Numbered from the stretch's first letter, positions 9,607 to 62,300 are shown. The stretch is 64,000 nt of DNA from Candidatus Kuenenbacteria bacterium (GCA_013202715.1 JABMRF010000007.1:8566-72565), one strand, 5' to 3'. The notes: a model not told the origin generated them from the letters alone. Numbers and translations: made by a program.

Positions 9607-9718
9607 TTTGACTTTTCGTCTTTGCTCAGGGTCCTTGACATTGTTTTGTGAATTTGTTAATATTAAAAGTCCGGTGTTCATCAAAAGAATTGAAGTTACA
9701 ATCAATAAGGAGAAGGAA

Positions 9719-9928
9719 ATGGAAAAAGTGAAGCTTGAAAGAAGGGCCACGATAGGAATTAGCGCATTGATAGACATAATGAAGCGTGGTTTCTTTGGAC
9801 AATTTGAAGCGTTTCGACCCGTTGAATGGGAAATAGAAGAAGCACCGAGTAGCGAAAACAAGTTCAAGGTTGATCTCTTGTTGCGTTGCCGTTTGGAAGA
9901 TATTGATTTCAATGAAGTTCTATCATAG
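9719..9928 (+). CDS. hypothetical small protein (69 aa) with strong SD (AAGGAGAAGG)
   Basis: ATG 9719 preceded by AAGGAG; no recognisable family. Confidence 0.35.
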   Translation: MEKVKLERRATIGISALIDIMKRGFFGQFEAFRPVEWEIEEAPSSENKFKVDLLLRCRLEDIDFNEVLS

Positions 9929-10147: not shown

Positions 10148-12367
10148 TTACTTTATGTCAGCCTCGTAAACTTTATTTCCGGAAATCAGATACATTTTGT
10201 TTCCACTAATTACAAAGTCTGCAATCGGGGCTTCTAGAGATTCAAATAAATATTGCTTGGCAAAGTCGCCGTTTTTGTTAGTTAAAATAATGCGTTTACT
10301 TCCGGCTTCGGAAATGTAAATATAGGGAAGCTCTGCTGTAGTGTAAATTTTATTGGCTTCAGCAAGAGCCGGCTCGATCAGCTTCAAGTCAAATTCCTGC
10401 AACTCTCCGGTATAAAATTTATAAACCTTGCCATCACTTGTCAAGACATAAATATCACCGTCAATAGTGAGGCTGGTTGCTTTGGAAAGATCAGCGTCTT
10501 TTTTGTCTTTGATCCAGATTTGTCCGCTACCATAGTTATTACCGCTGGCGCTGTATTTTATAATCTGCTGTCCGTTTGCATCAAGAGCGTAAATGCGCCT
10601 GTTGTAGAGCTCAGCGTGAGTGATCTTCGCGTTATCCGGCCAGGAAATTGATTTGTTTGTGAAGTTCTTTTGATCTGAACTATATGCCACCAGCTTGTTT
10701 TGATTTGTGATGAATGACAGGTTGCCGTCCTCTTCCATGCTTATTGCCAGATCGCCGTGTTCTGAATTTCCGATCGCACTTGAGGTTTTGTCTTCTGGAT
10801 TAACTTCGTAAAGAGTTAAGTCTTTGCTGTGAGTGAAAAGTTTGTCGCCAATCTTTTCAAGTTTCAGAAGATTGATTGGAATATCGTCCGGCCCCACCTT
10901 TGTAATTAATAGCGGGACTATTTTTTCAATATTCAAAAGCTTGTTTTTTATCGTTACGGACTGTTTTTCTAATTCTTCGAAGTTTGCCTTTTGGTTTGCA
11001 GTGGCTTGCGGTAAGTATTTAATAATGTCCTCAGCCTTTTTGATCAGTTCCAGACTCTTGCTGTCGTTTTTGTAAATTAAATTTATTTGAGCATCATTAA
11101 TAAGATCTTTTGCTTGCTGAATCTGAACGGCATAGATGGCTTGTTCCTCTTTTACTTGCTTGCGGTGCTTGACCCAGAAAATACTTGAGACCAATATTAT
11201 CCCAACAATTAACAAAGCAATTAGAATTGTTTTATTTAGCTTGCGCAGAGAAAATAGTTTGTCTTTTGATCGCACAACGGATGTTTCTGGGTGGGTTAGT
11301 GATTCTTTGGCTCGAAATAATTTGAGCTTTTTCTTGCCGGTGATTATTTTGAAAATGACCTTCAGTGCTTTGCCGATCGAAGTGAAGATTATTTTTATGG
11401 CATTAAAAAAATATTTAAGAATACCGAATTTCAATCTAACTGATTTATTTGGCCCTGCTAGCTGGCTTTTATCCACCTTTGATTTTTTGAAGAATTTTCG
11501 AAGGTGGGCTCTGATATTTAAGGCAAATGTTGGCGTGAGGAATTTTTCAGTTGTTTCTTTGGTTGAAATCAGTCGGGCAATTGACTTTTGGGAGACTGGC
11601 TTTTCATCAATTGACCGCTTTTCCTGCATTTTGATGAAAATCGCGCTGTATGTAAGGTGAGAATTATTTTTAACATTGTTAATCAGGCTTTTGAAATATT
11701 CAATGCCGTCACCAAATTCGTTACTGGAAAGGATTTTGTTTACTTTGTGCGGAGGAATATAGTTACTGAAAATTTCTGAACATATGAAGATAGTGTCATG
11801 GTAAAATATTTTTCCGCTGACGGTAGAAGAGAATATTTTTAATTTGCTTCCTTGCTCTTCTTTTAGTTTCGGTGTGTTATCAACAACGTTAATGACTTTG
11901 AAATTGTTCTGTTTTGTTTTGTGAAGAAGATAGGCATTGATTAATCCTTGTTGAGCAAAATAAAAATCAATATCCTTGGTTTGCAAGTTTGGTTTAGCCA
12001 CGGCGATTAAAAAGTTTAGGTTTTCTAAAACTAAACTGATGTGCCCAATCTGGATCATTTCTGTTAATGCAGTGTTGGTCTTTTGAAGAGCATGTTCAAA
12101 AACGGTTTCCAAATTTAATTTTTGAGGTTCGGGCGAAGAGTTGATCTGATCATAATAATTATCCTTCAGAGTATTGATCAGAGTCTGAATAATCTTTTCA
12201 CTCTCTGCAATTGGTGTGGCTCTAATTTCTACGATACCGATCAGGTAGCCGCCATTTTTTTCCTTTCCTTCTGGATAGATTATAAAATCCTCACAAAGGT
12301 AGGTGTCTTTGGCATGTTTTGATGGGATATAGATCTCTTCTAGTGAAATGTCGTGGTTTACTTCCAT
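10148..12367 (-). CDS. large membrane-anchored protein: cytoplasmic N-domain (~370 aa), 1 TM helix, coiled coil, C-terminal β-propeller-like repeat domain
   Basis: 739 aa; TM ILIALLIVGIILVSSIFWV; C-terminus has repeated …G.(I/V)Y(A/V)L(D/T)..G…Y strands. Confidence 0.6.
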   Translation of the reverse strand: MEVNHDISLEEIYIPSKHAKDTYLCEDFIIYPEGKEKNGGYLIGIVEIRATPIAESEKIIQTLINTLKDNYYDQINSSPEPQKLNLETVFEHALQKTNTALTEMIQIGHISLVLENLNFLIAVAKPNLQTKDIDFYFAQQGLINAYLLHKTKQNNFKVINVVDNTPKLKEEQGSKLKIFSSTVSGKIFYHDTIFICSEIFSNYIPPHKVNKILSSNEFGDGIEYFKSLINNVKNNSHLTYSAIFIKMQEKRSIDEKPVSQKSIARLISTKETTEKFLTPTFALNIRAHLRKFFKKSKVDKSQLAGPNKSVRLKFGILKYFFNAIKIIFTSIGKALKVIFKIITGKKKLKLFRAKESLTHPETSVVRSKDKLFSLRKLNKTILIALLIVGIILVSSIFWVKHRKQVKEEQAIYAVQIQQAKDLINDAQINLIYKNDSKSLELIKKAEDIIKYLPQATANQKANFEELEKQSVTIKNKLLNIEKIVPLLITKVGPDDIPINLLKLEKIGDKLFTHSKDLTLYEVNPEDKTSSAIGNSEHGDLAISMEEDGNLSFITNQNKLVAYSSDQKNFTNKSISWPDNAKITHAELYNRRIYALDANGQQIIKYSASGNNYGSGQIWIKDKKDADLSKATSLTIDGDIYVLTSDGKVYKFYTGELQEFDLKLIEPALAEANKIYTTAELPYIYISEAGSKRIILTNKNGDFAKQYLFESLEAPIADFVISGNKMYLISGNKVYEADIK

Positions 12368-12557
12368 GAAAATTAAGAATCAAGAATGAATAATGAAGAA
12401 TGCAGAATTAAGGCTGTGCGCTACTGTAGTCGCTTATTAATTCTATATTCTTCATTGTTAATTTGACTAAAAGTAAGTATCTATATTATACTATACATAT
12501 AAACAATTAATCAACTCAAAACGCCACAATAGGGGGGAAACGGCAAATGCTAAAATT

Positions 12558-15211: not shown

Positions 15212-15247
15212 AAGCGCTCCGATAGTTGTCGGAACGCTGTTTTTTTA
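15212..15247. terminator. bidirectional terminator (AGCGCTCCGATA-GTTG-TCGGAACGCT + U7)
   Basis: between convergent tsaB-like (+) and 834-aa ORF (-). Confidence 0.65.
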
Positions 15248-17749
15248 ACGAAGTCTTTTGCCTGAAGGTTCTTTCTCGGTCGGAGGAGACAATTTAGCAA
15301 TTAACTGTTCAAGTAAGTTCTTGAAAGGATCTGGTATATCTTGAGCTGGTATCATTTGCTCAGTTGCCATATCCTTGCGAGCTGAAATCCTTATTTTTGG
15401 TCTAGTAGCAACAATGTTTCCAGCCACTGCAGTTACTGTGCGTTTTTGGCTGGCATTCAAATAACCTGACTCATCTAGGTTGTGAATACCAATAACTGCT
15501 CGACTACAAATTTGTGGAATTTGCGCAAATGATGGATTGCTATCAATACTTTCTGACTTGGGTGGTTCATTTCTAGAAAGAATGTCCACGAACTGTTTAA
15601 GTAGGTATTCAGCAATACCACTAGCCATAAGTTTATTATTAGCCAGTACAGTCAAAGCTTCAATTGCTAGATCGTCTAGCCAAACCTTTTGTAAGGTGGC
15701 TTTGTTAAAAGCAAGCATGTACTTATTATAGATCGTACTATTGATTATAGGTGAACTCATAAGAGCAACAAAGGCTTGAACGATTTCATCCAGAGTTTCT
15801 CGCTCGTTAGTGGAATCTATGATTGCAATGTATTCATGCAAAAGCAAATCCAGTGCTTCAGCTAGTTCGATTTTAGCAGGCTGATCAAGTTGATCATGCT
15901 TAATAGCTGAGAATTTAGCTTTGGCAATGTTTATCCACGTTGTATTACTATATGAGTTTGTTTGGCTAACTACAAAGCCAATCAAGTTTACCAAGAATAG
16001 ATCACCGGTATTGATGAATCTGTCCAAAAATTCCGCATTTTGTTGCAAGATTGCTAGGTTTGGCTGTAGTGCTGGCCAGAATTTTTCTTTGTAAGCTCTA
16101 TTTCTTTTTTCACCCAAAATAAAGGTGGTTAGCAAAACTGCTCTTTGTGTGGCAGTACTTGACGGTTGACGTGCATTTAACAAGTAGAATTTTGCAATTT
16201 TTTTAACAATTTCACCTGGTAACTTACGTTCTTGATAGATTTTGTCCATCAAGTTGATGAAATGAACTTGTGCACCAGCTGTCCATTTTTGGAAGAAAGT
16301 CAAAGCCAGATCAAAAGCTTGATCAATTCGACTAACAAACTGGTTAACAAATTCCAGGGTTATAACTGCTTGAACTTCTGATTTGTCTTGGTTTTTACTT
16401 AGTGCATGACTGAAATAGTCAGCCCAAAGTTGCTCTTCCTGTAAAGCTTTTTGTCGTGGATCAGTTTCTAAGTGGAAAAGCACATGTTTGAAAGTGAAAA
16501 GTACTTGATCGTCATCGGTTAAATCAATATATTGGAGTAGTGGCTCAGTAATAAGTTCTGGTGCCAGTTGTTGGCCAAATTTCACCAAACAAGTTTCAAT
16601 AGTCTGTCTGTAGATTTTAGGATCTTCTACAAGAATTGTTCTGAGTTGGGCAACTAACCTAGTTTCTTGAACGAAATTTGGTAGTCTTCGACAGATCAAC
16701 TCAGCATTGGCTGTCAGGCAATTGATTACATGTAGCCTGACTTGACTTTTGGTGTCAACTTCTAGTAACTTTGCCAGAGTAATAACTGAAACGTTTAGTT
16801 CAACTTCAGTTTTATTTCTGTCCAGGTAGCCAACAATAATGTTGACTGCTTCGATTTGTAGTTTTGCTGAGCGTCCAGATTCGCACAAAAAGCTGATATT
16901 TTCCATTAATGTTGAATTACATCCATGGTCAGATAAAGCTTTTGCCACAATGCCTCGAGATCTAGTCGGACGATTGTGCAAGTTTGTGGTGATTGCGGTA
17001 ACAAAAGTTTCTTCCATTTTACCAAACATAGCTGGGCTGAGGGCATTGACAGTATTTTCAAATTCCTGAGGATCAACCATCATAGGTAAAGTAAACAGTT
17101 TTCTGCCCCACAGAGTAGCTTCTTCCAGCAAGCCTTCTTGCATTCTTTCTTGTACGGCTGGCAAAGCAAAAATGCCATCCTTGCCAGGAGCAGTCAAAGA
17201 CTGTTCTTGTTCCCTTACCGCTAGAGCCATTGTGCTTGAAGTAGCGTCAATCTCATCTTGCAAGGCAAGAATGATTTTGGGGTTGTTTAGTCCAGCGGGA
17301 ATTTCCATTTCTGGTTTGGTGTCTTCTTCTTCAATTTCAAACTCAGCGTCAATAATGTTAGAAGATTGTTCTGGCTCAGGAGTAGAGGAGACTACTCTTA
17401 ATTGCCAATAAATTTGCAAAGCTCGCAAACATTCTTCAGTTGCGGTTTTAGGCGTTAGATTTCTGTATTTTAGTTTGCGTTTAAAAAGAGAAAACAAGGC
17501 TTTGTTGATCAGGGCATCAAGATGGAATTGCGTCAGTATAGGCGAGGTTTTAAATTCTGGGAACATGAGTAAGGTTTCTATGATTTTTTTTGAGTCGTCA
17601 GGTTGATCAGTTTCCAGTAGCTCGATAATGCCTTCACTAATGTGAATGTTGTGCGCTGACAAAGCAATAATTCTTCTAGTTAGACGTTTATTTTTGATCC
17701 TTGCTTCAACTTGTTCTTGCCCAAGTGTAATAGCTGTGGAAATTTCCAT
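15245..17749 (-). CDS. large hypothetical α-helical protein (834 aa), no recognisable motifs
   Basis: uninterrupted 2.5-kb ORF on minus strand; predicted all-helical/repeat-like. Confidence 0.55.
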   Translation of the reverse strand: MEISTAITLGQEQVEARIKNKRLTRRIIALSAHNIHISEGIIELLETDQPDDSKKIIETLLMFPEFKTSPILTQFHLDALINKALFSLFKRKLKYRNLTPKTATEECLRALQIYWQLRVVSSTPEPEQSSNIIDAEFEIEEEDTKPEMEIPAGLNNPKIILALQDEIDATSSTMALAVREQEQSLTAPGKDGIFALPAVQERMQEGLLEEATLWGRKLFTLPMMVDPQEFENTVNALSPAMFGKMEETFVTAITTNLHNRPTRSRGIVAKALSDHGCNSTLMENISFLCESGRSAKLQIEAVNIIVGYLDRNKTEVELNVSVITLAKLLEVDTKSQVRLHVINCLTANAELICRRLPNFVQETRLVAQLRTILVEDPKIYRQTIETCLVKFGQQLAPELITEPLLQYIDLTDDDQVLFTFKHVLFHLETDPRQKALQEEQLWADYFSHALSKNQDKSEVQAVITLEFVNQFVSRIDQAFDLALTFFQKWTAGAQVHFINLMDKIYQERKLPGEIVKKIAKFYLLNARQPSSTATQRAVLLTTFILGEKRNRAYKEKFWPALQPNLAILQQNAEFLDRFINTGDLFLVNLIGFVVSQTNSYSNTTWINIAKAKFSAIKHDQLDQPAKIELAEALDLLLHEYIAIIDSTNERETLDEIVQAFVALMSSPIINSTIYNKYMLAFNKATLQKVWLDDLAIEALTVLANNKLMASGIAEYLLKQFVDILSRNEPPKSESIDSNPSFAQIPQICSRAVIGIHNLDESGYLNASQKRTVTAVAGNIVATRPKIRISARKDMATEQMIPAQDIPDPFKNLLEQLIAKLSPPTEKEPSGKRLR

Positions 17750-17928
17750 TTGGAGCCTCCAGTTTGTGTTTATATGTTAATGAACATTATATTTAATCTT
17801 AGAGAATTTTACCAAAAAAGTCAACAGTAGACAGTGAGGTAATCACTTAAACATATAAACAAAGAAATAAAGTACTTATAATTGTTTTTTGTTTAATTTA
17901 ATTAGAAAAGATATCCACAACTAAAGTG

Positions 17929-20121: not shown

Positions 20122-20158
20122 TGACTAGCGAATAGCGAATAGGGATTAGTGATTAGTT

Positions 20159-20184
20159 AAAAGCCTGTAGAAGGGGCTTTTTTG
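20159..20184 (+). terminator. rho-independent terminator (AAAGCC-loop-GGCTTT + U)
   Basis: after ftsL. Confidence 0.65.
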
Positions 20185-20190
20185 TTTGTC

Positions 20191-20219
20191 TTGACAAATA
20201 ATTAAAATTCGAGTAAGAT
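20191..20219 (+). promoter_or_regulatory. strong sigma70-like promoter (TTGACA-17-TAAGAT)
   Basis: perfect -35, 17-nt spacer; followed by ~75-nt structured GC-rich 5'UTR and GGAGGAGG SD. Confidence 0.6.
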
Positions 20220-20300
20220 GAATTGTTGAATGGTTCTTTTGACTGATCTCTCGACTGCGCCTTTTCGAGGGCTTCGCTCGAGATCTAGGAGGAGGTGAAC

Positions 20301-20621
20301 ATGTCTGAAAAATGGTTATTTGTGACCAGGCATATGTACGCACTTGTAAATGGTAAATTGAAATCTCGTCCCCGCATGACATCTTTTGGTACGGTTAGTG
20401 GTGAAGAATTGGAAGCAATTTTCGAAGAGCATGGTCTGGAAAAAGAGTCATCGGCATCTGATCCTGATACGGGAGAGCCGTTGTATTTACCCGAAGGAAC
20501 CAAGCTCGAAGAAGTGGATGGGAAATTGGTCATCACACTGGGCAGCGATGTGACAATGAAAGAAGGCGCTTGTATTTACGGGTTCAAAATCACTGAAGTT
20601 GACGGTCCTGAAGAAGATTAA
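20301..20621 (+). CDS. hypothetical acidic protein (106 aa), SD-bearing, compositionally GC-richer
   Basis: ATG 20301 with GGAGGAGG 8 nt upstream; own promoter and terminator. Confidence 0.5.
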   Translation: MSEKWLFVTRHMYALVNGKLKSRPRMTSFGTVSGEELEAIFEEHGLEKESSASDPDTGEPLYLPEGTKLEEVDGKLVITLGSDVTMKEGACIYGFKITEVDGPEED

Positions 20622-20635
20622 ACTTGTTGATTGAA

Positions 20636-20668
20636 ATAATCCTCGCCACGCGGGGATTTTTTTGTGGA
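20636..20668 (+). terminator. rho-independent terminator (AATCCTCGCC-ACG-CGGGGATT + U7)
   Basis: hairpin + TTTTTTTG. Confidence 0.7.
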
Positions 20669-20695
20669 ACAAATTAGAGCCGTAGTAGGTTTTCT

Positions 20696-20908
20696 AAACG
20701 GGGGCTCCATAGTCCCTTTGAAGCTAGACCCGTCCTTTGAAATCGGGATAGGAAGAATGAATAGCGAAGAAGGGCTGTGGAGTCCTTTTTGGGATGTTAT
20801 AAAAGCGACTTGGAAGTTTTTTAAATATCTCCAACAGGACTCCACAGCCTGTTCTTCGTTTCACTTCGAACAGGACTATGGAGCCCTCATTAAAGTAATT
20901 CTCCGTTT
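20696..20908 (+). ncRNA. candidate structured RNA / MITE-like element with two nested 21-bp helices (each: 14 perfect bp + 1x2 internal loop + 7 bp)
   Basis: 20702-20715↔20873-20886 and 20772-20786↔20836-20849 perfect complements; 20716-23↔20864-70 and 20765-71↔20852-58 extend both; ~47% GC; weak ORF potential only. Confidence 0.4.
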
Positions 20909-20984
20909 AGTATTATCGGCCCCTTTTAGTAGATGAGGACTTGATAAATATACAGTTTTGTAGTACCATTGACTAGAAAAGCAT

Positions 20985-22112
20985 ATGTATAAACTAAACG
21001 CAAAAAAATCAAATTCTCGCCGTGGCGAGTTGACCACTAGAAAAGGGGTAATTCAAACCCCTTGTTTTATGCCGATTGCGACCAAGGGAGCAATTAAAAC
21101 TATTACTGCAGATGAGGTTCGCGAGTTGAGTCCGGACGTTATCCTTGGCAATACCTATCATTTGATGCTGAGACCTGGCTCAGATGAGATCAAGGACCTC
21201 GGAGGTCTGCATCGGTTTATGGACTGGGAAAAGCCGATTTTGACCGACTCAGGTGGCTTTCAGGTTTTTTCATTGGCCAAAATACGAAAAATCACTGCCG
21301 AAGGCGTTAAATTCAACTCACATATTAGCGGTAAAGAATTTTTTATGTCGCCGGAAGACTCAATAAAGATTCAAATGAATATCGGCTCAGACATTATGAT
21401 GGTTTTGGACGAATGTGTGGAATTGCCCGCTGAGCGTTCATATTTAGAAAAATCAGTTGATTTGACCACAGTTTGGGCGAAGCGTTGCAAGGATTTTCTT
21501 CTCAATCAACCAATCAACCAGTCAACCAATAAACCTTTGCTGTTCGGAATCGTACAAGGGGGACTGGAATCGGATTTGCGAAAGAAGAGCGCCAAAGATC
21601 TGGTTGAAATCGGATTTGACGGCTATGCGATTGGCGGACTTTCGGTCGGCGAAAGTGAACAAGAAATGTGTTCAACTTTGGATTTTACTTGTCCTGAACT
21701 GCCAGAAAACAGACCGCGATATCTAATGGGAGTTGGCTATCCTCATCAAATTGTTGAGGCTGTTAAACGTGGAATTGACATGTTTGATTGTGTGATCCCT
21801 ACCCGCGAAGCGCGGCACGGCCGTCTTTATCTCTGGAATGATTTATTTCTTGAATCTGATAGAAACATCCTTGATCTGGGCGAATTTAGCAAGGAATTCT
21901 ACAACACTATTAATATCAAAAATGAAGAGTATAAATTTGATTTAAAACCAATAAACTCAAACAGTAAATTCCCTGAACTGCAAAAATATTCCAAAGCTTA
22001 TTTGCGGCATCTGTTTGTTACGGAAGATCCATTGGCGCAGCGATTGTCAACTTTGAATAATTTGGAATTTTATTTGGGCTTAATGGAGAAAATCAGAAAA
22101 GATATTCAATAA
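20985..22112 (+). CDS. tgt: queuine tRNA-ribosyltransferase, zinc-site Cys replaced
   Basis: …LTDSGGFQV…YLMGVGYPHQIVEAVKRGIDMFDCVIPTR.AR.G.L… catalytic motifs present; C-terminal CxCxxC replaced by NSNSKF. Confidence 0.85.
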   Translation: MYKLNAKKSNSRRGELTTRKGVIQTPCFMPIATKGAIKTITADEVRELSPDVILGNTYHLMLRPGSDEIKDLGGLHRFMDWEKPILTDSGGFQVFSLAKIRKITAEGVKFNSHISGKEFFMSPEDSIKIQMNIGSDIMMVLDECVELPAERSYLEKSVDLTTVWAKRCKDFLLNQPINQSTNKPLLFGIVQGGLESDLRKKSAKDLVEIGFDGYAIGGLSVGESEQEMCSTLDFTCPELPENRPRYLMGVGYPHQIVEAVKRGIDMFDCVIPTREARHGRLYLWNDLFLESDRNILDLGEFSKEFYNTINIKNEEYKFDLKPINSNSKFPELQKYSKAYLRHLFVTEDPLAQRLSTLNNLEFYLGLMEKIRKDIQ

Positions 22113-22163
22113 TAAAATTATTCAGCAAAAATACGTAATAAGCGTATTTTTTATTTGAGTGGT

Positions 22164-22192
22164 TTGACAAATAGCCTCAAATTGCTTAAGAT
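22164..22192 (+). promoter_or_regulatory. sigma70-like promoter (TTGACA-17-TAAGAT)
   Basis: same hexamer pair as 20191 promoter; precedes AGGAGG SD. Confidence 0.55.
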
Positions 22193-22230
22193 CTATTATT
22201 AGTATAAATTGTTCTTTTCAGGAGGATTAA

Positions 22231-22662
22231 ATGGCTATTTATCTATATATGGCTTTGGGAGTTGCTTTACTGCTGATACTCTTAGCAATAGTGTTTCGGA
22301 ATTCAATAAAAAAACAATTGAATAGTGGAAAAGACAAAGAAGCAAAGGCTGAGCTTGCGCGGATGGCAGCCATTATTCAGGGATTGTGCCAAAAGGATCC
22401 CAAGTGGAAAAAAAAATGGCCAGCAGCTGGTCGTCTTCACACTTTTATCAATACCAGTATTTTGGAAAAATATAGAGCCAGCAAGGCCTATGTCCGTGAC
22501 AAAGTAGCCAATAGATATGGCTTGGAACATCATAAAGCCAAGATCATGCTGAACTATTATCGTAGTCGCTATCTCCCAGAAGCTGGACGGCTCTATGAAA
22601 AAGAAAAAGCCAAACAAGAAAGGTTAGCGCAAAGAGCTAAAGAAAGAGGAAAAAAGAAGTAA
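22231..22662 (+). CDS. hypothetical N-terminally membrane-anchored basic protein
   Basis: TM ALGVALLLILLAIVF, then K/R-rich helical region; AGGAGG SD. Confidence 0.5.
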   Translation: MAIYLYMALGVALLLILLAIVFRNSIKKQLNSGKDKEAKAELARMAAIIQGLCQKDPKWKKKWPAAGRLHTFINTSILEKYRASKAYVRDKVANRYGLEHHKAKIMLNYYRSRYLPEAGRLYEKEKAKQERLAQRAKERGKKK

Positions 22663-22683
22663 ACAATTGTTAGGGAGGATAGC

Positions 22684-23379
22684 ATGAGTTTTAAATTCAA
22701 GGGCTTAGAGGGTTTTCAGGAAGAGATTCTCAATTACTTGAACGGAAAAGATTGGTGTTTATTGACTGATATTGTGAATACTGTTTTCAAAGACATTCAC
22801 ATAACAGCAGCATTAGTAACTGCAGAAAAGCGTCTTGAAGAATTGTGTGACAGGGGATTGGTAAGAAAGAGCGGAAAAGATAAATATATGATTTGTATTG
22901 ATCATGCTCGTCGGCTTGAGGTCAGAGTTGAACCGCAAGTAGTGAGATATCAGAATGATCCTCTTTCTCCAACCATAACAGCTCATCATGTTCTGGTTGA
23001 AGATGATCTCGGCCTTTTGCGCGAAATGCTGGCCAGGGAAAATGAAGTTGAGGCGTTCAAGCGTGGCTGTCAGGCAATGGCAAGTTTTTCCGGTGTGCAG
23101 TTGATTTTTGATCCGGAAACCTTTGATTATAAACAGATTTATGTTGCGCCAAAATGTGAAAAAGTTGAACTGCAAGTTGGGACCAAAATATTGGGTTCGC
23201 CTGAACTTGATTGTTTTCCGGAAATTGAAATTTATTTGGTTACAGTTTGCGATGATAATGGAGAATGGCAGGAAACATTTGGCTGTAGAAATGAGCTGAA
23301 TGCCTTTGTCCGCGGCTGCAAAGCTGTATGCTCATTTGCAGAAGTTCGCTTGGAAATAACACCGGAGTTTGAACGCTAA
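22684..23379 (+). CDS. hypothetical protein with internal ~25-aa duplication (EAFKRGCQAMASFSGVQLIFDPE / NAFVRGCKAVCSFAEVRLEITPE)
   Basis: 231 aa, GGGAGG SD; no family recognised. Confidence 0.5.
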   Translation: MSFKFKGLEGFQEEILNYLNGKDWCLLTDIVNTVFKDIHITAALVTAEKRLEELCDRGLVRKSGKDKYMICIDHARRLEVRVEPQVVRYQNDPLSPTITAHHVLVEDDLGLLREMLARENEVEAFKRGCQAMASFSGVQLIFDPETFDYKQIYVAPKCEKVELQVGTKILGSPELDCFPEIEIYLVTVCDDNGEWQETFGCRNELNAFVRGCKAVCSFAEVRLEITPEFER

Positions 23380-23389
23380 GGAGGAAAAA

Positions 23390-23689
23390 ATGGCTATCAG
23401 TCCATCAGATGTAAATCCCCTGTCCCCGGAAGATTTGGCGATTGTGCTTCGTTGGGAGAGCGTTATTGACGCTGAGCTTTACAACGAAGAAGATCGCAGG
23501 AATAGTGGAACTGCTCGAATAAAGATTTTATACGAAGAAGGCGAGGAAATACAAGGAACATATATGGACAGATTCACGGAGTTGGAGCGCAGATATCGCA
23601 GGGCCGGTTGGCATGTTGAACGATCTGCTCGAGACTCTGGGCCGGCTTTGGCTATTTGCGTCAACGAACATTGGAAAGCAAATTGGTAA
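23390..23689 (+). CDS. hypothetical protein (99 aa)
   Basis: AAGGAGG SD 7 nt upstream of ATG 23390; translationally coupled to previous. Confidence 0.45.
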   Translation: MAISPSDVNPLSPEDLAIVLRWESVIDAELYNEEDRRNSGTARIKILYEEGEEIQGTYMDRFTELERRYRRAGWHVERSARDSGPALAICVNEHWKANW

Positions 23690-23695
23690 AATGGT

Positions 23696-23722
23696 AATGC
23701 AGTTCAATGAGCTGCATTTTTT
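23696..23722 (+). terminator. rho-independent terminator (AATGCAG-loop-CTGCATT + U6)
   Basis: hairpin + TTTTTTAATTG. Confidence 0.65.
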
Positions 23723-23812
23723 AATTGAAAAAATTGACATTTGCCAAATCAAGCGGATTTGCTATACTGGAAAAAGTAAGCATCTTAGCTAATTATCTAG
23801 TTACCTAAATCT

Positions 23813-24133
23813 ATGCAAGATGATAAATGGCATGATATTTTAGACAGAGTCAAAGAGCAGTTTGAGATTCAGATGCAGGAGACTGAGCCTCATTCTAATA
23901 TAGAACGCGGCCAGGTTGAAACCGTGATTTTTGAGTCGCCTATTGGTAGAATTAAACTGGTCAGAACGACTACGCCGAGAGTTCTTGATAAGAAAACAAT
24001 CTATTCAGCTCGCGCAGGTAGCGACATGAACGTTCAATATGAATATTCTAAAACAGAATATGTGCACGATTTAAAAATATTCAAATGGGATGATGTCCGG
24101 GACGACTGGGTAAATGCTCGTTTTGAAATATAA
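23813..24133 (+). CDS. hypothetical protein (106 aa)
   Basis: preceded by extended -10 TGCTATACT (23760-68). Confidence 0.45.
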   Translation: MQDDKWHDILDRVKEQFEIQMQETEPHSNIERGQVETVIFESPIGRIKLVRTTTPRVLDKKTIYSARAGSDMNVQYEYSKTEYVHDLKIFKWDDVRDDWVNARFEI

Positions 24134-24240: not shown

Positions 24241-25305
24241 ATGAACAGAATTTTAAAAGCAGGAGGAACAATTTTAATTTGTATGGCCGTGTTGCTTGCA
24301 ATTACGGGTTGTACACCAAAACCAGAAAAGGTTTTACAGAAAATGATTAAAAAAATGGCCGAGGTAAATTCATACGATCTCAATGTAAAGTTGGGGGTAC
24401 ATGGACAGTTCCCACAGCTAACAACTTTAAATCTCGAGGGAGCAAAACTTTTGCCAGGTGCAATAATTTTTGATCTTATGGGGCCGGTTGATTTAACAAA
24501 AGATTTAGCATACAAATTGAGTGGTAGTGCGAAATATCGTCTCCAAGATTCAGAGATCAAGTTTGTCGGCGATTTGCTATATCAAGGCAATACGCTCTTT
24601 CTAAAATTATCTGAAATCCCGGATTTAAAAATGGCTGACTTGACTGATTTAAAAAATAATTGGTACAAATTTGATTTTGATTCTTTTGCGCTTGCAAAAC
24701 AAATAACTGACCCGAAAGAAACCAAGGTTGATGAGCAGAAAAATAAAAAGCTTAGAAAATTAGTTCAGAAAATTAATTTTTTCGAGATTGTTTCTGATAA
24801 TGGTATTGATAATCTTGACGGGATAAGAACTTATCATTACAGCATAAAAGTAAATAAAGATGCAATGGATAAATTTTTTCACGAGGCAACAGAAATATTT
24901 GAAGAAAGAAAATTAACCGCCCTTGAAGAAAAAGAGCTTGATAAAAACTTGGAAAATTGGAGTCAGATAACCGGTCAGGTTTGGGTTGGAGAAAAGGATT
25001 ATTATTTATACCGAATTGAGCTTGGTACACAAGTGGAAAGTGAAGACTCAGGTACCACTCGATACGATATGGCATTAGATCTTCGGGATTTTAATAAAAA
25101 GTTTGAAATAAATGAACCGGAGAATGTGCGTGAATTTAACATGGCAGAAATCTTTATGCCTGGACTTGATTTAGCCTTGCCAGAAGCTGGAAGTGGGGAC
25201 ATTAACAGTGTTGAAGAAATGCTAAAAGGTATTGAGGGTGTAAGTGACGAAGAACTACAGAAAAAATTAGATGAATTGAAAATTGAATTAGATAAAGTTA
25301 AATAA
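24241..25305 (+). CDS. hypothetical lipoprotein (lipobox LAITGC)
   Basis: MNRILKAGGTILICMAVLLAITGC… signal peptidase II site; ATG 24241 preferred. Confidence 0.55.
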   Translation: MNRILKAGGTILICMAVLLAITGCTPKPEKVLQKMIKKMAEVNSYDLNVKLGVHGQFPQLTTLNLEGAKLLPGAIIFDLMGPVDLTKDLAYKLSGSAKYRLQDSEIKFVGDLLYQGNTLFLKLSEIPDLKMADLTDLKNNWYKFDFDSFALAKQITDPKETKVDEQKNKKLRKLVQKINFFEIVSDNGIDNLDGIRTYHYSIKVNKDAMDKFFHEATEIFEERKLTALEEKELDKNLENWSQITGQVWVGEKDYYLYRIELGTQVESEDSGTTRYDMALDLRDFNKKFEINEPENVREFNMAEIFMPGLDLALPEAGSGDINSVEEMLKGIEGVSDEELQKKLDELKIELDKVK

Positions 25306-25375
25306 ATTGTTAAATTGTTAGATTGTTATATTGTTAAAACAATTTAGCAATATGGCAATTTAGCAATATAATTTT

Positions 25376-30339: not shown

Positions 30340-31287
30340 TTATTTCTTTGTCTTCATGGCCGTCTCGATCCGGACGATGTTGGCAATGCCGATATCTTTG
30401 ACTGAACCGAGAAGGTCTTCTCGGACAGCCTCATAGGGAATATCATGCTTTGCCATCAATTTGAGAAGTCCGCCGATATTGCCCTCCATGGCATAGAGCA
30501 CGACCAGGGATGTGGCTGTATGTCTTACCGCGTCCGCGCAAACCTTGTATTTGTCATGCAAGGACAGAACGGTCCAGTTTGAGTAGATGCTGGTTTCCGT
30601 TTGGAAATACTCGCAGCGTCTCTCGGCGACAGGAACTCTGAGGTTCATAGGGAGGTTGTACTTCTCCCCAAGGGTGAATTTGTCTTCGTCGTTGGTTTCT
30701 TCGTCATTGAATGCTTCGAGTGCCAGCGGGACAATCATCCTCTCATAATCCAGAGAAAATGCCACGCTAATCGAAAGCCTGCTTTCATAGCTTCTCTCGG
30801 GATCATTGAAGAGCTTCATGACCAGTGGCAAGACTTTTTTATCGCGGTCCATACCGGAGTTGTTGGCAACGATGGCAGCCTCTTGCCAACGCTTACGGCT
30901 GACCAAGTAATCATAATAATCGTTGGCAATCTGGAGTTTGGCTTCGGGTGAAAACGAGTCAATAAGATATTCACTACAGGTTGCAATGTAAATAGCGCTT
31001 GGGCTACTCATACTGATTTTTTCCAGGGAGTCTTTGACTTCCTCTTTTATCAGCAGTTGCAAGTAGGCTCTGGCAGCTTCGACTGCATATTTATTCCCGT
31101 CCCGACTGAACCCATTATCTACTGGCCAGTTTTTCTCTCCATAGGTAGTACTCGCATACAGCATCGCATTCCAGTACATCCCATCTTCCATGAGCTCATC
31201 GTAGTGTGTCTGCCCTTCTGATTGGCAGCCGGCAAAAGCCAGCATTCCAACAACAATCAACGTCAGCTTGATACACAGATTTTTCAT
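30340..31287 (-). CDS. hypothetical lipoprotein (lipobox LAFAGC), GC-rich (~50%) gene
   Basis: MKNLCIKLTLIVVGMLAFAGC…; AAGGAG SD; composition far above window average. Confidence 0.6.
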   Translation of the reverse strand: MKNLCIKLTLIVVGMLAFAGCQSEGQTHYDELMEDGMYWNAMLYASTTYGEKNWPVDNGFSRDGNKYAVEAARAYLQLLIKEEVKDSLEKISMSSPSAIYIATCSEYLIDSFSPEAKLQIANDYYDYLVSRKRWQEAAIVANNSGMDRDKKVLPLVMKLFNDPERSYESRLSISVAFSLDYERMIVPLALEAFNDEETNDEDKFTLGEKYNLPMNLRVPVAERRCEYFQTETSIYSNWTVLSLHDKYKVCADAVRHTATSLVVLYAMEGNIGGLLKLMAKHDIPYEAVREDLLGSVKDIGIANIVRIETAMKTKK

Positions 31288-31493
31288 ACCTTTACTCCTT
31301 GTTTGATTTGTCAAAAAACTTCTAACCTGAACAAATCATTATAGCAGAAAAACAAAATTCTGTCAAGGGATGTGCAATTTTAGACAAAATATATGGATAT
31401 TTTGGCTTCTTCATTTTTTATTTTTTTGACTTTCACCCCACAAACAGTTAAGCTAGAATATAATATGTTATTTAACAATATAAGAGGTGCACC

Positions 31494-33245
31494 ATGCTGG
31501 AATTTGAATTTTTGGACTCAGAAAAACTTGAAAGCAGATATTTTCAGCTAGAAGACGCGGAGATCATGATTGATCGCGGTCTGAAAGGTGAAAATTGCGG
31601 ATTGGTTTATCCAACTGGAATTGGAAAAACTATTGTCGCTTTTTTTGTTATGGATCATTATCTGCGTAGCGGCAAAAAGGTCCTTTTTCTGGCTCATACC
31701 ACAGCGCTGATAAATCAGCACATGGAATCAGCCAGATCCTTGTTCAAGTTGCCGGACGAGAAGATCAATAAGATTACCGGCCGGATTTCAGAGAAAAAGC
31801 GGGTCAAGCTTTGGGGAGAAAGCAGAATTATTTTTGCCACTCCGCAAACCATTGATAATGAAATTAAAAAGGGAACAATTGACTTTGATAATGTCGGCTT
31901 TGTAGTTTTCGATGAAATGCACATGGCTGACAAAAAGTATGCTTATGTCGCACTAGCCAAGTTGGCAAAAGAAAAGGACATTCGAACAATTGGACTTACC
32001 GCATCGAGTGGTCGAGCAAAACGGATTGAAGTTCTGGAAGACAATTATAATATCAAATGGTGGGTCTATCGATCGGCTGAAGAATTAAAAAAGTTTGTTT
32101 TCCCGAAGCAACATCTGCCGATCATTATTGACTATCCTCGATTGCACCGACACGCCATGAAGTTCCTGCGAAGTAAAATTGTTTTAATCCATAACGAACT
32201 GGCCTCAACTGGCTTGATTGATCGGATTGAGGCAACTGAAGATACTGATAGGCGCTTTCCGTTTTATCGTTTGACCGAATTGAACAAGTTGTACCCACCA
32301 TTAAAGCGTTGGCTGGATAACCAAAAAAAGGAAAAACCATATTTTACAGATCCTATTAATGGCAAGAGAAGTTCCTGGCAGCATTTCATGGTGATGTATA
32401 TTGCTTATTACAAGCTGATGCATCTTCTTCACGTTTTTGTGACGGAAGGCTATGAAGTGTCACTGGAATACGTTGAAAAGATTCGATGTGAATTGGTAAA
32501 TAAAGGCACTCCAGAGCGACCGCACTACAGATATAATGCCGCTTTTGTGATTTTGTTTGATTACAATACCGAGCGTTTCATAAAGGGGCTCCATTATTTC
32601 ATTGATAATGAGATTGCCCATCCGAAGATTGCCAGGATTTTGGAATTGATTGAGGAATATAAAGATAGAAATTATCGGATGTTGGTTTTTTCAAATTTTG
32701 AAAGCACAGTGAAGGCTCTCAAAGAGTATCTAACGAAAATGGGCTATACGGTTGAAACTATTGCTGGCTCTAAGTTCATGAAGCCAAAAGAACAGCAAGC
32801 TGTTTTGGCCAGATTCAAAGAGCGCGAATTTCAAATTTTGTTGTCAACAACTGTGGTAGAGGCCGGCATTGATGTACCCAAGATCGATGTGGTGATTAAC
32901 TATTCAATGCCACTTACCGGTATTGCTCGGATTCAGCGAGGCGGTCGAGCCGGCAGAACTGCAGTTGGTTTGGTTTACTATTTGATCATGGAAAATTCAA
33001 ATGACAGCAGTTTGTACTATGCTGCCCGGTCAGATAATGTGGCTATGGTAAAGGAACTCAAAAAGCGTTTGACGATTCAAGCGCTCAGAGAGCAGGGACA
33101 TTTCTACCCAATCAGAGTGGTTCAGCACACATTACTGTTTGCTTCTGGATTTGAAGAAAGGGAAGAGTTGACTACTCGGCAAAGAGAGTCAAAAGGGCGT
33201 CGAGCACCAAGCAAGAAAAAGATTGTGAATCCCAAATTGCTATAA
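31494..33245 (+). CDS. SF2 helicase of the Hef/RIG-I/FANCM-like family (PTGxGKT Walker A, DEMH box)
   Basis: YPTGIGKT (motif I), VVFDEMH (II), …LLSTTVVEAGIDVP.IDVVINYS (V), QRGGRAGR (VI); ~190-aa insertion between RecA-like domains; no fused nuclease. Confidence 0.7.
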   Translation: MLEFEFLDSEKLESRYFQLEDAEIMIDRGLKGENCGLVYPTGIGKTIVAFFVMDHYLRSGKKVLFLAHTTALINQHMESARSLFKLPDEKINKITGRISEKKRVKLWGESRIIFATPQTIDNEIKKGTIDFDNVGFVVFDEMHMADKKYAYVALAKLAKEKDIRTIGLTASSGRAKRIEVLEDNYNIKWWVYRSAEELKKFVFPKQHLPIIIDYPRLHRHAMKFLRSKIVLIHNELASTGLIDRIEATEDTDRRFPFYRLTELNKLYPPLKRWLDNQKKEKPYFTDPINGKRSSWQHFMVMYIAYYKLMHLLHVFVTEGYEVSLEYVEKIRCELVNKGTPERPHYRYNAAFVILFDYNTERFIKGLHYFIDNEIAHPKIARILELIEEYKDRNYRMLVFSNFESTVKALKEYLTKMGYTVETIAGSKFMKPKEQQAVLARFKEREFQILLSTTVVEAGIDVPKIDVVINYSMPLTGIARIQRGGRAGRTAVGLVYYLIMENSNDSSLYYAARSDNVAMVKELKKRLTIQALREQGHFYPIRVVQHTLLFASGFEEREELTTRQRESKGRRAPSKKKIVNPKLL

Positions 33246-33330
33246 TAATAATACATGATTTAAAATTAACAAGATTAAGGCCTTCTTCGCTTTGTACTTT
33301 GTCGGAGCTTCGAAGGCCGCAGGAGGAAAA

Positions 33331-34335
33331 ATGGAAGAAAAAACTTCACTATTTTCCGGTATACATAAGCATGACGGAACTTGGGTCAAGGATTTGCCAG
33401 ATCGAGTTGGCGAAACGATTTTTGAGCGGTTCATGGTCTATGAGCCACCTGAAATTCGAGAGTCAAAGAACGATACGTTCTTTTTGTCAGTTGTGATCGG
33501 AGACAAAACCGGTCGCATCAAACTGACTATGTGGCAAGTTCCCATCTTTGACAAAGCAAAAGCACTGGCTATGTTTGAAGTTGAAAAGGTCTACACCCTT
33601 GAGGCCAGAGTTCGTCTATATCGAGGTCAGATCAACTTGAGCTTGAGCTATGCTGGCAAGGAATCCAAGCTTTGGCTTTGTGAACATTCAGATGACGAAA
33701 GTAAATCTGATTATCAATTTGCGGATTACTGTCAGGTCCCAAATGACTGGACAGTTGTCCCTGTTCAGGAAATGATTGAATTTGTGACAGATGTGATTCA
33801 GAATGTCGAACATGATGCATACAACAGGATTCTTCGGTCCCTTTGGGAAGATGAAGAATGGCGTGCTCAGTTCATAAAATGGCCGGCTGCCAAGTGGTAT
33901 CATCATGCCTATTACGGCGGATTACTTGAACACGTTTACGAAATGCTTCAGGGAGTGAACACATTTATTGTTCATTATCCGAACTTGAATCTGGACCTAC
34001 TCCGAACCGCAATCATTCTCCATGATGTAGGGAAGTTCAAGGAGTATCGTGTAGGAGTTCAGATTGAAACCGTGAAAAGAGCCTATAGAATCGGCCACAT
34101 GGTATATATTCTTTTGCAAGTCGATCGGCTTGTTCGTAAAAAGGAAATTGAAATTACTGAGGAAGATTTGGAAGATCTGATTCATTTGATTATTTCTCAT
34201 CACGGCGAAGTCGAGCTTGGCTTTGGCTCAGCTGTAAGCCCAGACCTACCGGAGGCAAAGATCCTTTACCAATTGGATCAGCTGTCCTCAAAAACCAATC
34301 AAGAGTACTTGAAATCAAGGCGCGAAGCGCTTTAG
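33331..34335 (+). CDS. OB-fold + HD-domain nuclease, YhaM (3'-5' exonuclease)-like
   Basis: N-terminal OB fold; HD motifs H.AYYGGLLEH, ILHDVGK, SHHG; AGGAGG SD; 85 nt after helicase stop. Confidence 0.6.
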   Translation: MEEKTSLFSGIHKHDGTWVKDLPDRVGETIFERFMVYEPPEIRESKNDTFFLSVVIGDKTGRIKLTMWQVPIFDKAKALAMFEVEKVYTLEARVRLYRGQINLSLSYAGKESKLWLCEHSDDESKSDYQFADYCQVPNDWTVVPVQEMIEFVTDVIQNVEHDAYNRILRSLWEDEEWRAQFIKWPAAKWYHHAYYGGLLEHVYEMLQGVNTFIVHYPNLNLDLLRTAIILHDVGKFKEYRVGVQIETVKRAYRIGHMVYILLQVDRLVRKKEIEITEEDLEDLIHLIISHHGEVELGFGSAVSPDLPEAKILYQLDQLSSKTNQEYLKSRREAL

Positions 34336-34768: not shown

Positions 34769-35049
34769 ACGATACTCAAGTAGCTCAAATCGAAGGGCTT
34801 TTGAAAAATTCAGAATTAGATAATCGCTCGCAGGAGTTGATGCGGCAGTTTTTTAATTCTATTGCCGAACAGCCACAATATCCTAAGATCGTCAGTTTGC
34901 TGGAAAGATTTCCTTCTGTTTTTGAAAACTTTTGCAACTGCTTTCAGGTGAAGCGAGATTTTCTTAAACAAGGAAAAAGTGAAGAAGAATGGAATACTTT
35001 TGTTGCAAAGGAAGATGAGATGTTTGAGCAGATGGAGAAGGAAGAATAG
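34765..35049 (+). CDS. hypothetical small acidic protein (94 aa)
   Basis: translationally coupled to 34583 ORF. Confidence 0.35.
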   Translation: MNDTQVAQIEGLLKNSELDNRSQELMRQFFNSIAEQPQYPKIVSLLERFPSVFENFCNCFQVKRDFLKQGKSEEEWNTFVAKEDEMFEQMEKEE

Positions 35050-40425: not shown

Positions 40426-40734
40426 TTATGGAAGCTGTTTTGATAGATCCTGATAGAACTTGTCTAACAGTTCATCCTCACTTTCAAATCCGGCAACAGC
40501 ATTGCCATGGTCTAGTTGCCAAGAAACATCAAACATACCGTTGTGAAAAATAAATCCAAGTTCGAACTCAGCAGTGTCCGGTTCACAACAGTACCAGGCT
40601 TGAAGACTTTTTCTGTTTTCTTGAAAGGCTTTTAAGATGTCCTCTCTTGTTTCAGAAGAGTTTGTCAATAGTTGTTTTGCCCTTTCCAGCAGTTTCATTC
40701 CCAAACATTCAACGATACTTTTTTGGTCATTCAT
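40426..40734 (-). CDS. hypothetical acidic protein (102 aa) antisense to hydrogenase operon
   Basis: only minus-strand ORF within the hyd cluster; no family recognised. Confidence 0.4.
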   Translation of the reverse strand: MNDQKSIVECLGMKLLERAKQLLTNSSETREDILKAFQENRKSLQAWYCCEPDTAEFELGFIFHNGMFDVSWQLDHGNAVAGFESEDELLDKFYQDLSKQLP

Positions 40735-40857
40735 GTTCGCCTCTCCAACTAGAGTAAGTTTAGTATTATATCATATAAATTGACCATTAGTGAATTATAT
40801 CACATAAAATTTATTTTGTCAATGGAGGATTATCTCGTTGTCTAATTTTACCAAAAA

Positions 40858-56988: not shown

Positions 56989-57103
56989 ATACCTTAATTT
57001 TACAGTTAAATAAGGCAAAAGTCAAAGGTAATTGACAAATCAAAAAAAGTATGTTATCTTATAGGGTGATGTTTATTGAAAAGACTGAACAAAGGGGGAT
57101 TCA

Positions 57104-57955
57104 ATGACCAAAGTTCATGAAGAATGGATTACAGAGATGATGGAGCGTCATGCTTGGGTAAATGATCTGGCCAGAGAATTTTGGGACAACAGTTTTCGCC
57201 ATGAACAAGTGCTTGAGTTGAATAGTGCTATCAGTGCTGGAAGAGAAGAAAGGGTGAAGGAACTCCATGCACGATTGATTAGCTCTATTCATTGTAATGT
57301 TTGTGGGACGAAGATTGCACGCGGTTGTATGGGTGCTGAGCAGTTTGGCAAGCGACGTAAATGCGATGACTGCCTTGAGGCTGAGCGCGAGTCTGATGGA
57401 AAAAAGTATTGCCGGCATTGTGGTCGGATTTATACGAAAAAAGAGCATTATGCTGGAATGAAGCAGCCACTTGATCCTAAGTCATTTGCCGCCATCAGTT
57501 GTTGTCCTGATTGTAAGACATTTGCGATTACCATTGCCAAGACCTGTGAAAGGCTAGCGAGGGAAAGTGTGCAGCCACTGATGGAAAGAAGAGATGATTT
57601 GAAGCGACCTGTATGCAGACCTGAGTTGTCTGTCGGAGATCAGGCTATTTTTGATCAGTATGGTGTAGACCATTCACTTTTCTTCAAGGGAACAAAGCCG
57701 CTTTTTATTCAAGGGATTGCCAAGGGTCATCGACCTCTGTTGCGTGCACTTGAACAAGGGTTTGTTCCTCGGTGTCGAATACGACACAAGGAATATGGAT
57801 ATGAAGGTGAGCTTCAATCTCTCACTCCTGTGATCAGAAAAGATGGGATGGGAACATTCATGACAAAACTGTTGAAGGCCAAAGTCTATTACGATGGAAG
57901 ACTGGCATTTACGGTTATTGGTGAATTCAAGATTGATGAATTTGAAGTAATGTAA
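57104..57955 (+). CDS. hypothetical protein with two CxxC…CxxC Zn-ribbon pairs; GC-rich gene; candidate restriction-endonuclease partner of adjacent MTase
   Basis: CNVCG…CDDC and CRHCG…CPDC; AAGGGGGA SD; ~47% GC; convergent with MTase. Confidence 0.45.
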   Translation: MTKVHEEWITEMMERHAWVNDLAREFWDNSFRHEQVLELNSAISAGREERVKELHARLISSIHCNVCGTKIARGCMGAEQFGKRRKCDDCLEAERESDGKKYCRHCGRIYTKKEHYAGMKQPLDPKSFAAISCCPDCKTFAITIAKTCERLARESVQPLMERRDDLKRPVCRPELSVGDQAIFDQYGVDHSLFFKGTKPLFIQGIAKGHRPLLRALEQGFVPRCRIRHKEYGYEGELQSLTPVIRKDGMGTFMTKLLKAKVYYDGRLAFTVIGEFKIDEFEVM

Positions 57956-62291: not shown

Positions 62292-62300
62292 TAAGAAGAT

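Follow-up and report, generated by a model that had tools for sequence, protein, structure and literature searches.

A minority of the genes in a 64-kb stretch of DNA from Candidatus Kuenenbacteria bacterium (GCA_013202715.1 JABMRF010000007.1:8566-72565; this whole stretch is called the window below) was found to carry strong Shine-Dalgarno (SD) sites beside housekeeping genes that lack them. The favoured explanation, to which we give a probability of roughly 0.6, is that the SD-led genes are an inherited minority class. For three gene families, those of 20301, 22231 and 17749, comparison with related loci indicates that the genes were inherited together with their signals and were not recently imported. 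The window has a GC content of 37.9%, carries nearly all of its genes on the plus strand and derives from a small uncultured groundwater bacterium of the Patescibacteria, or candidate phyla radiation (CPR), which bears the NCBI organism name Candidatus Kuenenbacteria.

The strength of SD sites was calculated as the duplex energy against the canonical 16S 3' tail for every candidate start of 72 genes, and a site was called strong when the duplex energy at the accepted start was -9 kcal/mol or lower. All strong SD-like motifs on both strands were collected together with their downstream context. Strong sites (motifs GGAGG, AGGAGG or GGAGGTGA) were present in 8 of the 72 genes, 4-6 nt before the start codon and with duplex energies of -9.3 to -17.2 kcal/mol, and three further genes had moderate sites. 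As 2.4% of random start triplets reach the same energy, about 1.7 strong sites were expected by chance, and the observed number represents an approximately five-fold excess. The site of 20301 includes GGAGGTGA, which is complementary over 8 nt to the canonical 16S 3' tail.

No SD was detected at the ribosomal-protein, rpoA, tgt, ftsI, murF, lexA, dinB, hyd, pgk and eno genes, and allowing for the best of all starts in the first 30 codons did not change this. An earlier note on this DNA had described the housekeeping genes as lacking SD sites, and the duplex energies over the window starts agree with it. Every site listed in that note is present; the one at 34583, however, is weak (GGAGAG, 12-13 nt from the ATG), and the one at tatD is the arm of a hairpin, whereas two SD genes, 17749 on the minus strand (834 aa, GGAGG) and 40734 on the minus strand (GGAGAGG), had not been listed. 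In the gap between metG and tatD (62262-62300), the hairpin GCCCCCTCCTT-ggt-AAGGAGGGGGC contains the SD-like sequence as its 3' arm, 13 nt from the tatD ATG, and this motif is probably a terminator or attenuator and not a ribosome-binding site. A GGAGG upstream of iPGM1 falls within the coding end of eno.

In the genome collection, the tgt loci nearest to that of the window belonged to Patescibacteria metagenome-assembled genomes, one of which (L003) showed 71% identity and the others 50-58%. Between 12558 and 29780 the window and L003 show synteny, and the core genes of L003 are likewise without SD. Its orthologue of 17749, 30% identical over the full length, keeps both the GGAGG (7 nt from the start) and the TTGACA-17-TAAGAT promoter, and directly after its tgt lies a 125-aa gene with AGAGGAGG that is 28% identical to 22231 (E = 5e-7). 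Two further contigs, L087 and L088, carry homologues of 20301, one of which is named Candidatus Falkowbacteria. These homologues (P0010 and P0011; 68-69% identity) are full-length proteins of 106 aa in syntenic position, and they confirm the start assigned to 20301. The order in L087 and L088 is mraZ, rsmH, ftsL, SD genes including the 20301 homologue, tgt, and then the 22231 homologue (143/145 aa), followed by the 23813 homologue, a lipoprotein gene, SPFH and ftsI. In both contigs each of the genes that fill the two slots flanking tgt had an SD, and no core gene had one.

Between the window and L087/L088, the identity of the core gene products was 88-90% for mraZ, 89% for SPFH, 74-75% for tgt, 66-67% for ftsI, 65-66% for rsmH, 57% for the ftsL-like gene, 56-60% for 23813 and 48-51% for the lipoprotein 24241. 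The values for the SD genes, 68-69% for 20301 and 57-62% for 22231 (57% in L087, 62% in L088), are within the range of these flanking core genes (48-90%). GGAGG was kept in all nine members of the 20301, 22231 and 17749 families at a spacing of 5-7 nt in the orthologues, whereas the adjacent bases varied, and the promoter and early leader of 20301 were 82% identical to those of L088 over 62 nt. When metagenomes were scanned for further proteins of the 20301 family, just one contig, identical to L087, was returned, and a database search with 17749 returned only a fragment of 17749 itself, although L003 has an orthologue.

Since GGAGG was kept while its flanks varied, purifying selection on a working SD is indicated, and with it use of the SD by the host ribosome. 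On this comparative evidence the host almost certainly uses SD pairing, and the sites would pair with an intact anti-SD. The proposal in the earlier note of an SD-independent host was thus not borne out. Its second proposal, recent acquisition, fails for 20301, 22231 and 17749, because the three are syntenic with conserved signals, and 20301 and 22231 have diverged as core genes have.

The SD genes also proved to be a non-random class in other respects. The pattern TTGAC[AT]-N16-18-TAxxxT occurred 25 times in the window compared with 7.4 times in shuffled sequences. Ten of the matches lie 16-81 nt upstream of a gene start, and eight of these ten precede SD genes, in which 38-81 nt separate the -10 box from the start codon; the reported tendency of SD genes to have promoters of the TTGACA-17-TAAGAT type was thereby confirmed. 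When the relatives only were considered, a promoter with a consensus -35 box was found with 7 of 15 SD genes and 1 of 75 others (p = 6e-6). A leader motif, GTTC[AT]TT, is common to the 17749, 20301 and 22231 families. It is inverted in L003, an orientation that hints at a site acting at the DNA level. The shared promoter and leader of the SD units suggest common regulation.

With regard to content, six of the eight strong SD genes had no Pfam domain, compared with 12 of the 58 non-SD genes (Fisher p = 0.004), and with the moderate SD genes included 10 of 12 were Pfam-negative (p = 7e-5). The absence of recognisable function that had been claimed for these genes therefore holds for those six; the other two, which encode the helicase and the YhaM-like HD protein, contain known Pfam domains. 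The GC content of the SD genes in the window was 0.423 versus 0.375 for the non-SD genes (p = 7e-4). The suggested comparison of SD energy with third-position GC (GC3), run on the window genes, gave 0.386 versus 0.335 (p = 0.012), the SD genes again being the richer, with arginine up and lysine down in their products. In the relatives the GC difference was not significant, although a slight excess was still seen in the L087/L088 orthologues of SD genes. Codon bias was rejected as the source of the higher GC3: GC3 is lowest (0.298) in ribosomal and glycolytic genes, so the bias linked to expression in this genome does not account for the excess. Of the coherent foreign gene pool that had been proposed, the coherence stands (promoter, leader, lack of Pfam domains and GC), but not the foreign origin of the three inherited families.

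The starts of the remaining genes have features of their own. T was found at -1 in 81% of the 58 non-SD starts versus 2 of the 12 SD starts, and G was almost missing from -6 to -1 of the non-SD starts. As has been suggested for chloroplast mRNAs, the U at -1 could pair with A37 and so lengthen the contact with the initiator tRNA. The strict arrangement TGnTATA[AC]T-N7/8-ATG was observed 8 times versus 0.37 times in shuffled sequences. Six genes that stand first in their units have a -10 box 7-8 nt before the ATG, in five of them an extended TGnTATAAT/TATACT and in the flippase gene a box without TGn, and the arrangement is kept in the L003 orthologues of murF and 29780. Public gene calls for ftsI and murF match these starts. 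Leaderless genes have been described as having their -10 box at this place, 6-8 nt ahead of the start (PMC6028130), and the six genes would accordingly be leaderless with transcription beginning at or near the start codon, where T(-1)A(+1) would agree with the usual pyrimidine-purine preference for transcription starts. Another 19 non-SD genes begin 25 nt or less from the upstream gene, a spacing compatible with coupling or re-initiation.

Under the favoured explanation, three expression architectures for housekeeping genes would be used in this genome next to that of the minority class, namely leaderless-type starts with TGnTATAAT/TATACT 7-8 nt before the ATG; coupled starts at most 25 nt from the upstream stop codon; and starts preceded by G-poor, A/T-rich unstructured sequence with T(U) at -1 and no SD. 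The minority class, about 11-15% of genes, would consist of clade-specific proteins, mostly without a known domain. These genes would be transcribed as leadered mRNAs from promoters in which a consensus -35 box (TTGACA/T) is separated by 17 nt from a -10 box, often TAAGAT, and GGAGG 4-7 nt upstream of the ATG would recruit the 30S subunit by pairing with the 16S 3' tail. The architecture would be heritable within gene families, with promoter, leader motif and SD travelling with syntenic genes, and new genes would now and then be inserted into SD units, such as 22684 and 23390 downstream of 22231.

Several points weigh against this explanation. The compositional difference of the SD genes is what foreign DNA would show, and inheritance leaves it unexplained. 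The 17749 orthologue is 30% identical, compared with about 70% for its neighbours. Thirty-three non-SD genes match neither the leaderless-type nor the coupled pattern; T stands at -1 in 29 of them. Moreover, the comparison rests on three to four related genomes selected around tgt, and the anti-SD motif (CCTCCT) has been detected in 48% of Parcubacteria 16S genes, about half being reported without it (PMC9297842). No rRNA was found in the window, nor was a 16S signature found in 1.34 Mb of fetched loci.

The alternative that fares best, though it is still unlikely, is an old foreign origin, in which moron-like cassettes entered the ancestor of the clade and were domesticated, the donor signals surviving because they were functional in the host. 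The SD units are indeed autonomous (terminator, promoter, leader, SD, gene and terminator), unrelated genes share the promoter and leader module, the gene content of the two slots flanking tgt differs between genomes, and a domain of 22684 has phage-like relatives. Viral-contig scans, however, gave no phage or plasmid homologue for 20301, 23390 and 57104, PHROGs gave no match for 20301, 22231 and 17749, and the window holds no mobility genes; on present data such an origin is also hard to separate from that of native clade-specific genes.

Less probable still is that the SD genes as a whole are recent imports from phages or plasmids into a host that does not use SD, with signals that have not yet decayed. 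Their higher GC, GC3 and arginine and lower lysine and their predominantly Pfam-negative products would be expected of imports, 57104 adjoins a type II methyltransferase, and the putative lipoprotein gene 31287 has a GC3 of 0.57 and lies a few genes downstream of tRNA-Glu. The clearest case for recent gain is that of 22684 and 23390, which are absent from L003, L087 and L088 and follow the 22231 stop codon, ahead of the operon terminator. These two look like genome-specific additions, alone among the genes examined, and here the recent gain proposed in the earlier note has some support. For 22684 no whole-protein relative was found among 5.8 billion proteins. An exhaustive HMMER search matched its C-terminal domain of about 55 aa to proteins of 68-155 aa (E = 2e-5 to 7e-4), and a second, more divergent copy of the domain was read by eye upstream within 22684. 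The matching proteins are all small and sit in arrays of small same-strand open reading frames (ORFs) on phage-like contigs; L083 also has a phage integrase, L085 a TnpB-like gene, and the 212-kb contig L086 DUF5131/DUF2201. This is suggestive, though not proof, of a domain drawn from a mobile-element gene pool. No homologue of 23390 was detected in the loci of the relatives, viral contigs and family libraries, no whole-database protein search having been made.

Against recent import of the class stand the synteny of 20301, 22231 and 17749, the conservation of SD, spacing and promoter in all three families with core-like divergence of the first two, and the GC excess in the L087/L088 orthologues, which is therefore not transient. 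No integrase or transposase domain was found in any window protein and no att-like repeats were found in the window, and the proteins without known function had no match in viral scans, PHROGs and PADLOC. Furthermore, the methyltransferase of the putative restriction-modification pair has a leaderless-type start, and several clade-specific Pfam-negative genes (10148, 12558, 23813, 24241 and 29780 among the SD-less ones) have no SD; foreignness thus does not predict SD.

There is a slim chance that the SD units form a dedicated regulon, in which access to the anti-SD or a factor acting on the leader would serve as a global on/off switch. Its module would be TTGACA-17-TAAGAT, then GTTC[AT]TT (in three gene families) and then GGAGG, and the proteins switched would be clade-specific, possibly host-interaction or phage-related, and made independently of housekeeping synthesis. 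That the GGAGG motifs arose by chance or are another signal (a DNA operator or an RNA stability element) is very improbable. Two SD-like motifs do clearly have another nature (the arm of the tatD hairpin and the GGAGG in the end of eno), but all strong sites and those of all orthologues lie within a narrow distance of the ATG (4-7 nt), the complementarity extends to GGAGGTGA, the excess over chance is about five-fold, and the motif also occurs at internal operon genes, where it overlaps the upstream stop codon (23379-23384).

An inherited SD-led class has partial parallels elsewhere. In Bacteroidota, including Flavobacteriia, most genes are reportedly SD-less with A-rich, G-poor upstream sequences, and the anti-SD is said to be retained while a few specific genes keep a functional SD (work of Baez et al. 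2019 NAR, Jha et al. 2021 NAR and McNutt et al. 2023 NAR). The window is similar in that most genes are SD-less and a few specific genes keep SD, but it comes from another phylum and differs in having T at -1 in place of A at -3, -6 and -12, and its SD genes are accessory and do not include rpsU. Genomes that mix leaderless and SD starts are well known, namely GeneMarkS-2 group C (Mycobacterium, Deinococcus) and group X with weak signals (PMC6028130). As in group C, first genes have a -10 box 6-8 nt upstream and leadered SD genes occur in the same genome; in group C, however, the default is SD unless leaderless, whereas in the window the internal operon genes are also SD-less, and SD is found in about 11-15% of genes, which are clade-specific, accessory and served by one common type of consensus -35 promoter. 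Tsurumaki et al. (2022) found no CCTCCT in about half of the Parcubacteria 16S genes and suggested that no SD helix forms (PMC9297842). The window likewise belongs to a CPR lineage with little SD-dependent initiation, but its conserved GGAGG would argue that an anti-SD exists and serves some of the genes. As with phage morons and genomic islets, the units are self-contained between core genes, slightly off in composition and variable in slot content; unlike morons, they have no prophage context or mobility genes, and three families are syntenic and vertically inherited.

In the literature searched, the sole CPR-specific statement was that the anti-SD occurs in 48% of Parcubacteria 16S genes; no paper joined 'leaderless' with Parcubacteria, and papers on leaderless genes and CPR did not address the initiation split. 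CPR bacteria have reduced ribosomes, and their translation initiation has scarcely been described. If the pattern is genome-wide, CPR gene callers would need three start models (the public gene calls set the starts of 20301, 23390, 24241 and 33331 elsewhere than those supported here), genes without known function that share an expression class of their own could be singled out for further study, and SD presence would be no mark of recent horizontal transfer.

Table 1. Positions of SD genes and their signals, of the locus around tgt, and of other features in the window.
Feature	Position (strand)	Motif or signal	Remark
9719 unit	9635..9928 (+)	AAGGAG (moderate); TTGACA-17-TAATAT promoter	69-aa ORF
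17749	15245..17824 (-)	GGAGG, 6 nt to ATG (strong); TTGACT-17-TAAGAT promoter	834 aa
Terminator-like hairpin	20159..20181 (+)		ends mraZ-rsmH-ftsL unit
Promoter P1	20191..20219 (+)	TTGACA-17-TAAGAT	conserved at DNA level with L088
Leader of 20301	20226..20300 (+)	GTTCTTT motif	about 75 nt
SD of 20301	20287..20298 (+)	AGGAGGAGGTGA, GGAGG 5 nt to ATG	-17.2 kcal/mol
20301	20301..20621 (+)		SD-led; 106-aa protein
Intrinsic terminator of 20301	20638-20658, or to 20665 (+)
Near-perfect hairpin	20697..20891 (+)		about 190 nt; -100 kcal/mol, z -11.5
tgt promoter	20941..20969 (+)	TTGATA-17-TACCAT	15 nt from -10 box to ATG
tgt	20985..22112 (+)		queuine tRNA-ribosyltransferase; core gene, no SD
Promoter P2	22164..22192 (+)	TTGACA-17-TAAGAT	followed by leader with GTTCTTT
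SD of 22231	22220..22225 (+)	AGGAGG	GGAGG 5 nt to ATG
22231	22231..22662 (+)		143 aa; N-terminal hydrophobic segment, predicted transmembrane from sequence
SD of 22684	22673..22678 (+)	GGGAGG	GGAGG 5 nt to ATG
22684	22684..23379 (+)		SD-led; 231 aa
SD of 23390	23379..23384 (+)	AGGAGG (in AAGGAGG)	GGAGG 5 nt to ATG; overlaps 22684 stop codon
23390	23390..23689 (+)		SD-led; 99 aa, GC 0.47
Intrinsic terminator of 22231-23689 operon	23696..23718 (+)
Promoter P3	23741..23768 (+)	TTGCCA-16-TGcTATACT	kept in L003, L087, L088 (TTGCYA-16-TGnTATACT)
23813	23813..24133 (+)		conserved 106-aa protein; leadered, no SD in four genomes
31287, putative lipoprotein	30340..31366 (-)	AAGGAG (moderate); TTGACA-17-TATAAT promoter	315 aa, GC3 0.57
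Hef-like DEAD helicase and YhaM-like OB/HD protein	31426..34335 (+)	GAGGTG (strong) and AGGAGG, 4 nt (strong)	starts 31494 and 33331
40734	40426..40822 (-)	GGAGAGG (moderate); TTGACA-17-TATAAT promoter	102 aa
57104 unit	57032..57955 (+)	GGGGGA, 4 nt (strong); TTGACA-17-TATCTT promoter	283-aa protein
Flippase, leaderless-type	4767	-10 box at 4753
ftsI, leaderless-type	26227	-10 box at 26210
murF, leaderless-type	28329	-10 box at 28312
29780, leaderless-type	29780	-10 box at 29763
hydB, leaderless-type	39426	-10 box at 39409
Methyltransferase, leaderless-type	58854 (-)	-10 box at 58870 (-)
Tandem-repeat arrays (examples)	1035-1068, 3199-3233, 8961-9049, 12366-12412, 25303-25367, 35045-35084, 44599-44630, 51495-51531, 54095-54161

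In the locus around tgt, the leader of 20301 contains a local hairpin insertion relative to L087 and L088. A regulatory RNA in this leader was considered and rejected, the fold being no better than those of shuffled sequences (z -0.3). The large hairpin between the 20301 terminator and tgt has outer arms of 19 nt and inner arms of 32 nt and is present in a single copy; no Rfam family matched it, and a permissive E-value gave just generic miRNA-precursor hits. Its slot is taken in L087 and L088 by two additional small genes with SD sites, and a pair of smaller hairpins was seen there in L088. The weak promoter of tgt is kept as TTGAAA-17-TATAAT/TATACT in L087 and L088, and its distance from the ATG implies a leader of about 8 nt without SD. 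According to the four genomes in which 23813 is leadered yet SD-less, a leader alone does not require an SD. No flanking repeats were found around 20122-24133.

Searches of Pfam, PHROGs, NCBIfam and PADLOC returned nothing for 9719, 17749, 20301, 22231, 22684, 23390, 31287 and 57104. When AlphaFold models of 22684 (pLDDT 65.6) and 20301 (pLDDT 84.4) were compared with the PDB by Foldseek, no significant match was obtained, the best E-values being 0.07 and 0.15. Four viral-contig scans likewise gave no relatives, and PHROGs gave nothing for the proteins without known function, which speaks against a phage origin; the C-terminal domain of 22684, however, has the phage-like matches given above.

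By Pfam, the window contains a ribosomal block with infA, rpsM, rpsK, rpsD, rpoA, rplQ, rplM, rpsI, a flippase, a glycosyltransferase, rplJ and rplL; a cell-wall block with mraZ, rsmH, an ftsL-like gene, tgt, an SPFH protein, ftsI and murF, after which comes tRNA-Glu; then lexA, dinB, a NiFe hydrogenase cluster of group 3b type and hypA; and, in its last part, pgk, eno, two iPGM genes, uppP, yceG, rsmI, metG, tatD and the start of the atp operon. An L10 leader was found upstream of rplJ-rplL. In the same region (7432-9555), an amino-acid kinase gene precedes rplJ-rplL in place of rplK-rplA; loss of uL1 reportedly coincides with loss of the anti-SD in some Parcubacteria.

With regard to the other SD loci, the cluster at 30.3-34.8 kb, which contains the gene with a GC3 of 0.57, lies a few genes downstream of tRNA-Glu. 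The leader of its YhaM-like gene, about 77 nt long, is headed by a two-codon mini-ORF in leaderless position (33238-33263: TGCTATAAT, 8 nt, ATG ATT TAA). The 57104 gene is convergent with a gene for a type II N4/N6 DNA methyltransferase (57104-58854), and the two are possibly a restriction-modification pair with two different initiation modes. The 40734 gene lies antisense between two hydrogenase subunit genes, and a NUDIX gene (42900-43349) also breaks into the hydrogenase cluster.

Three short units were observed on the minus strand at 58900-60000, each with a near-perfect promoter and a terminator, a GC content of 0.46 and mini-ORFs only. Their promoters are TTGACA-17-TGcTATAAT at 59827 and 59375 and TTGACA-17-TACAAT at 59214, and an upstream module of 78 nt is repeated at 59339-59416 and 59791-59868 (83%). 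The units may be small RNAs of new kinds; none matched Rfam even at E <= 1, and RNase P RNA, considered for one of them, was unsupported, the Rfam search at a permissive E-value being empty. Two overlapping ORFs at 37373-38018, between the lexA unit and dinB, have a common repeated peptide, EETTKVGQK[LF], and are possibly a frameshifted or duplicated gene fragment. Tandem repeats with a period of 7-9 nt and 3-7 copies, each array with its own unit, were found in 23 of the 49 intergenic regions of at least 40 nt, at a density of 4.07 per kb in intergenic versus 0.64 per kb in coding DNA, and these arrays were almost absent upstream of the SD-led genes.

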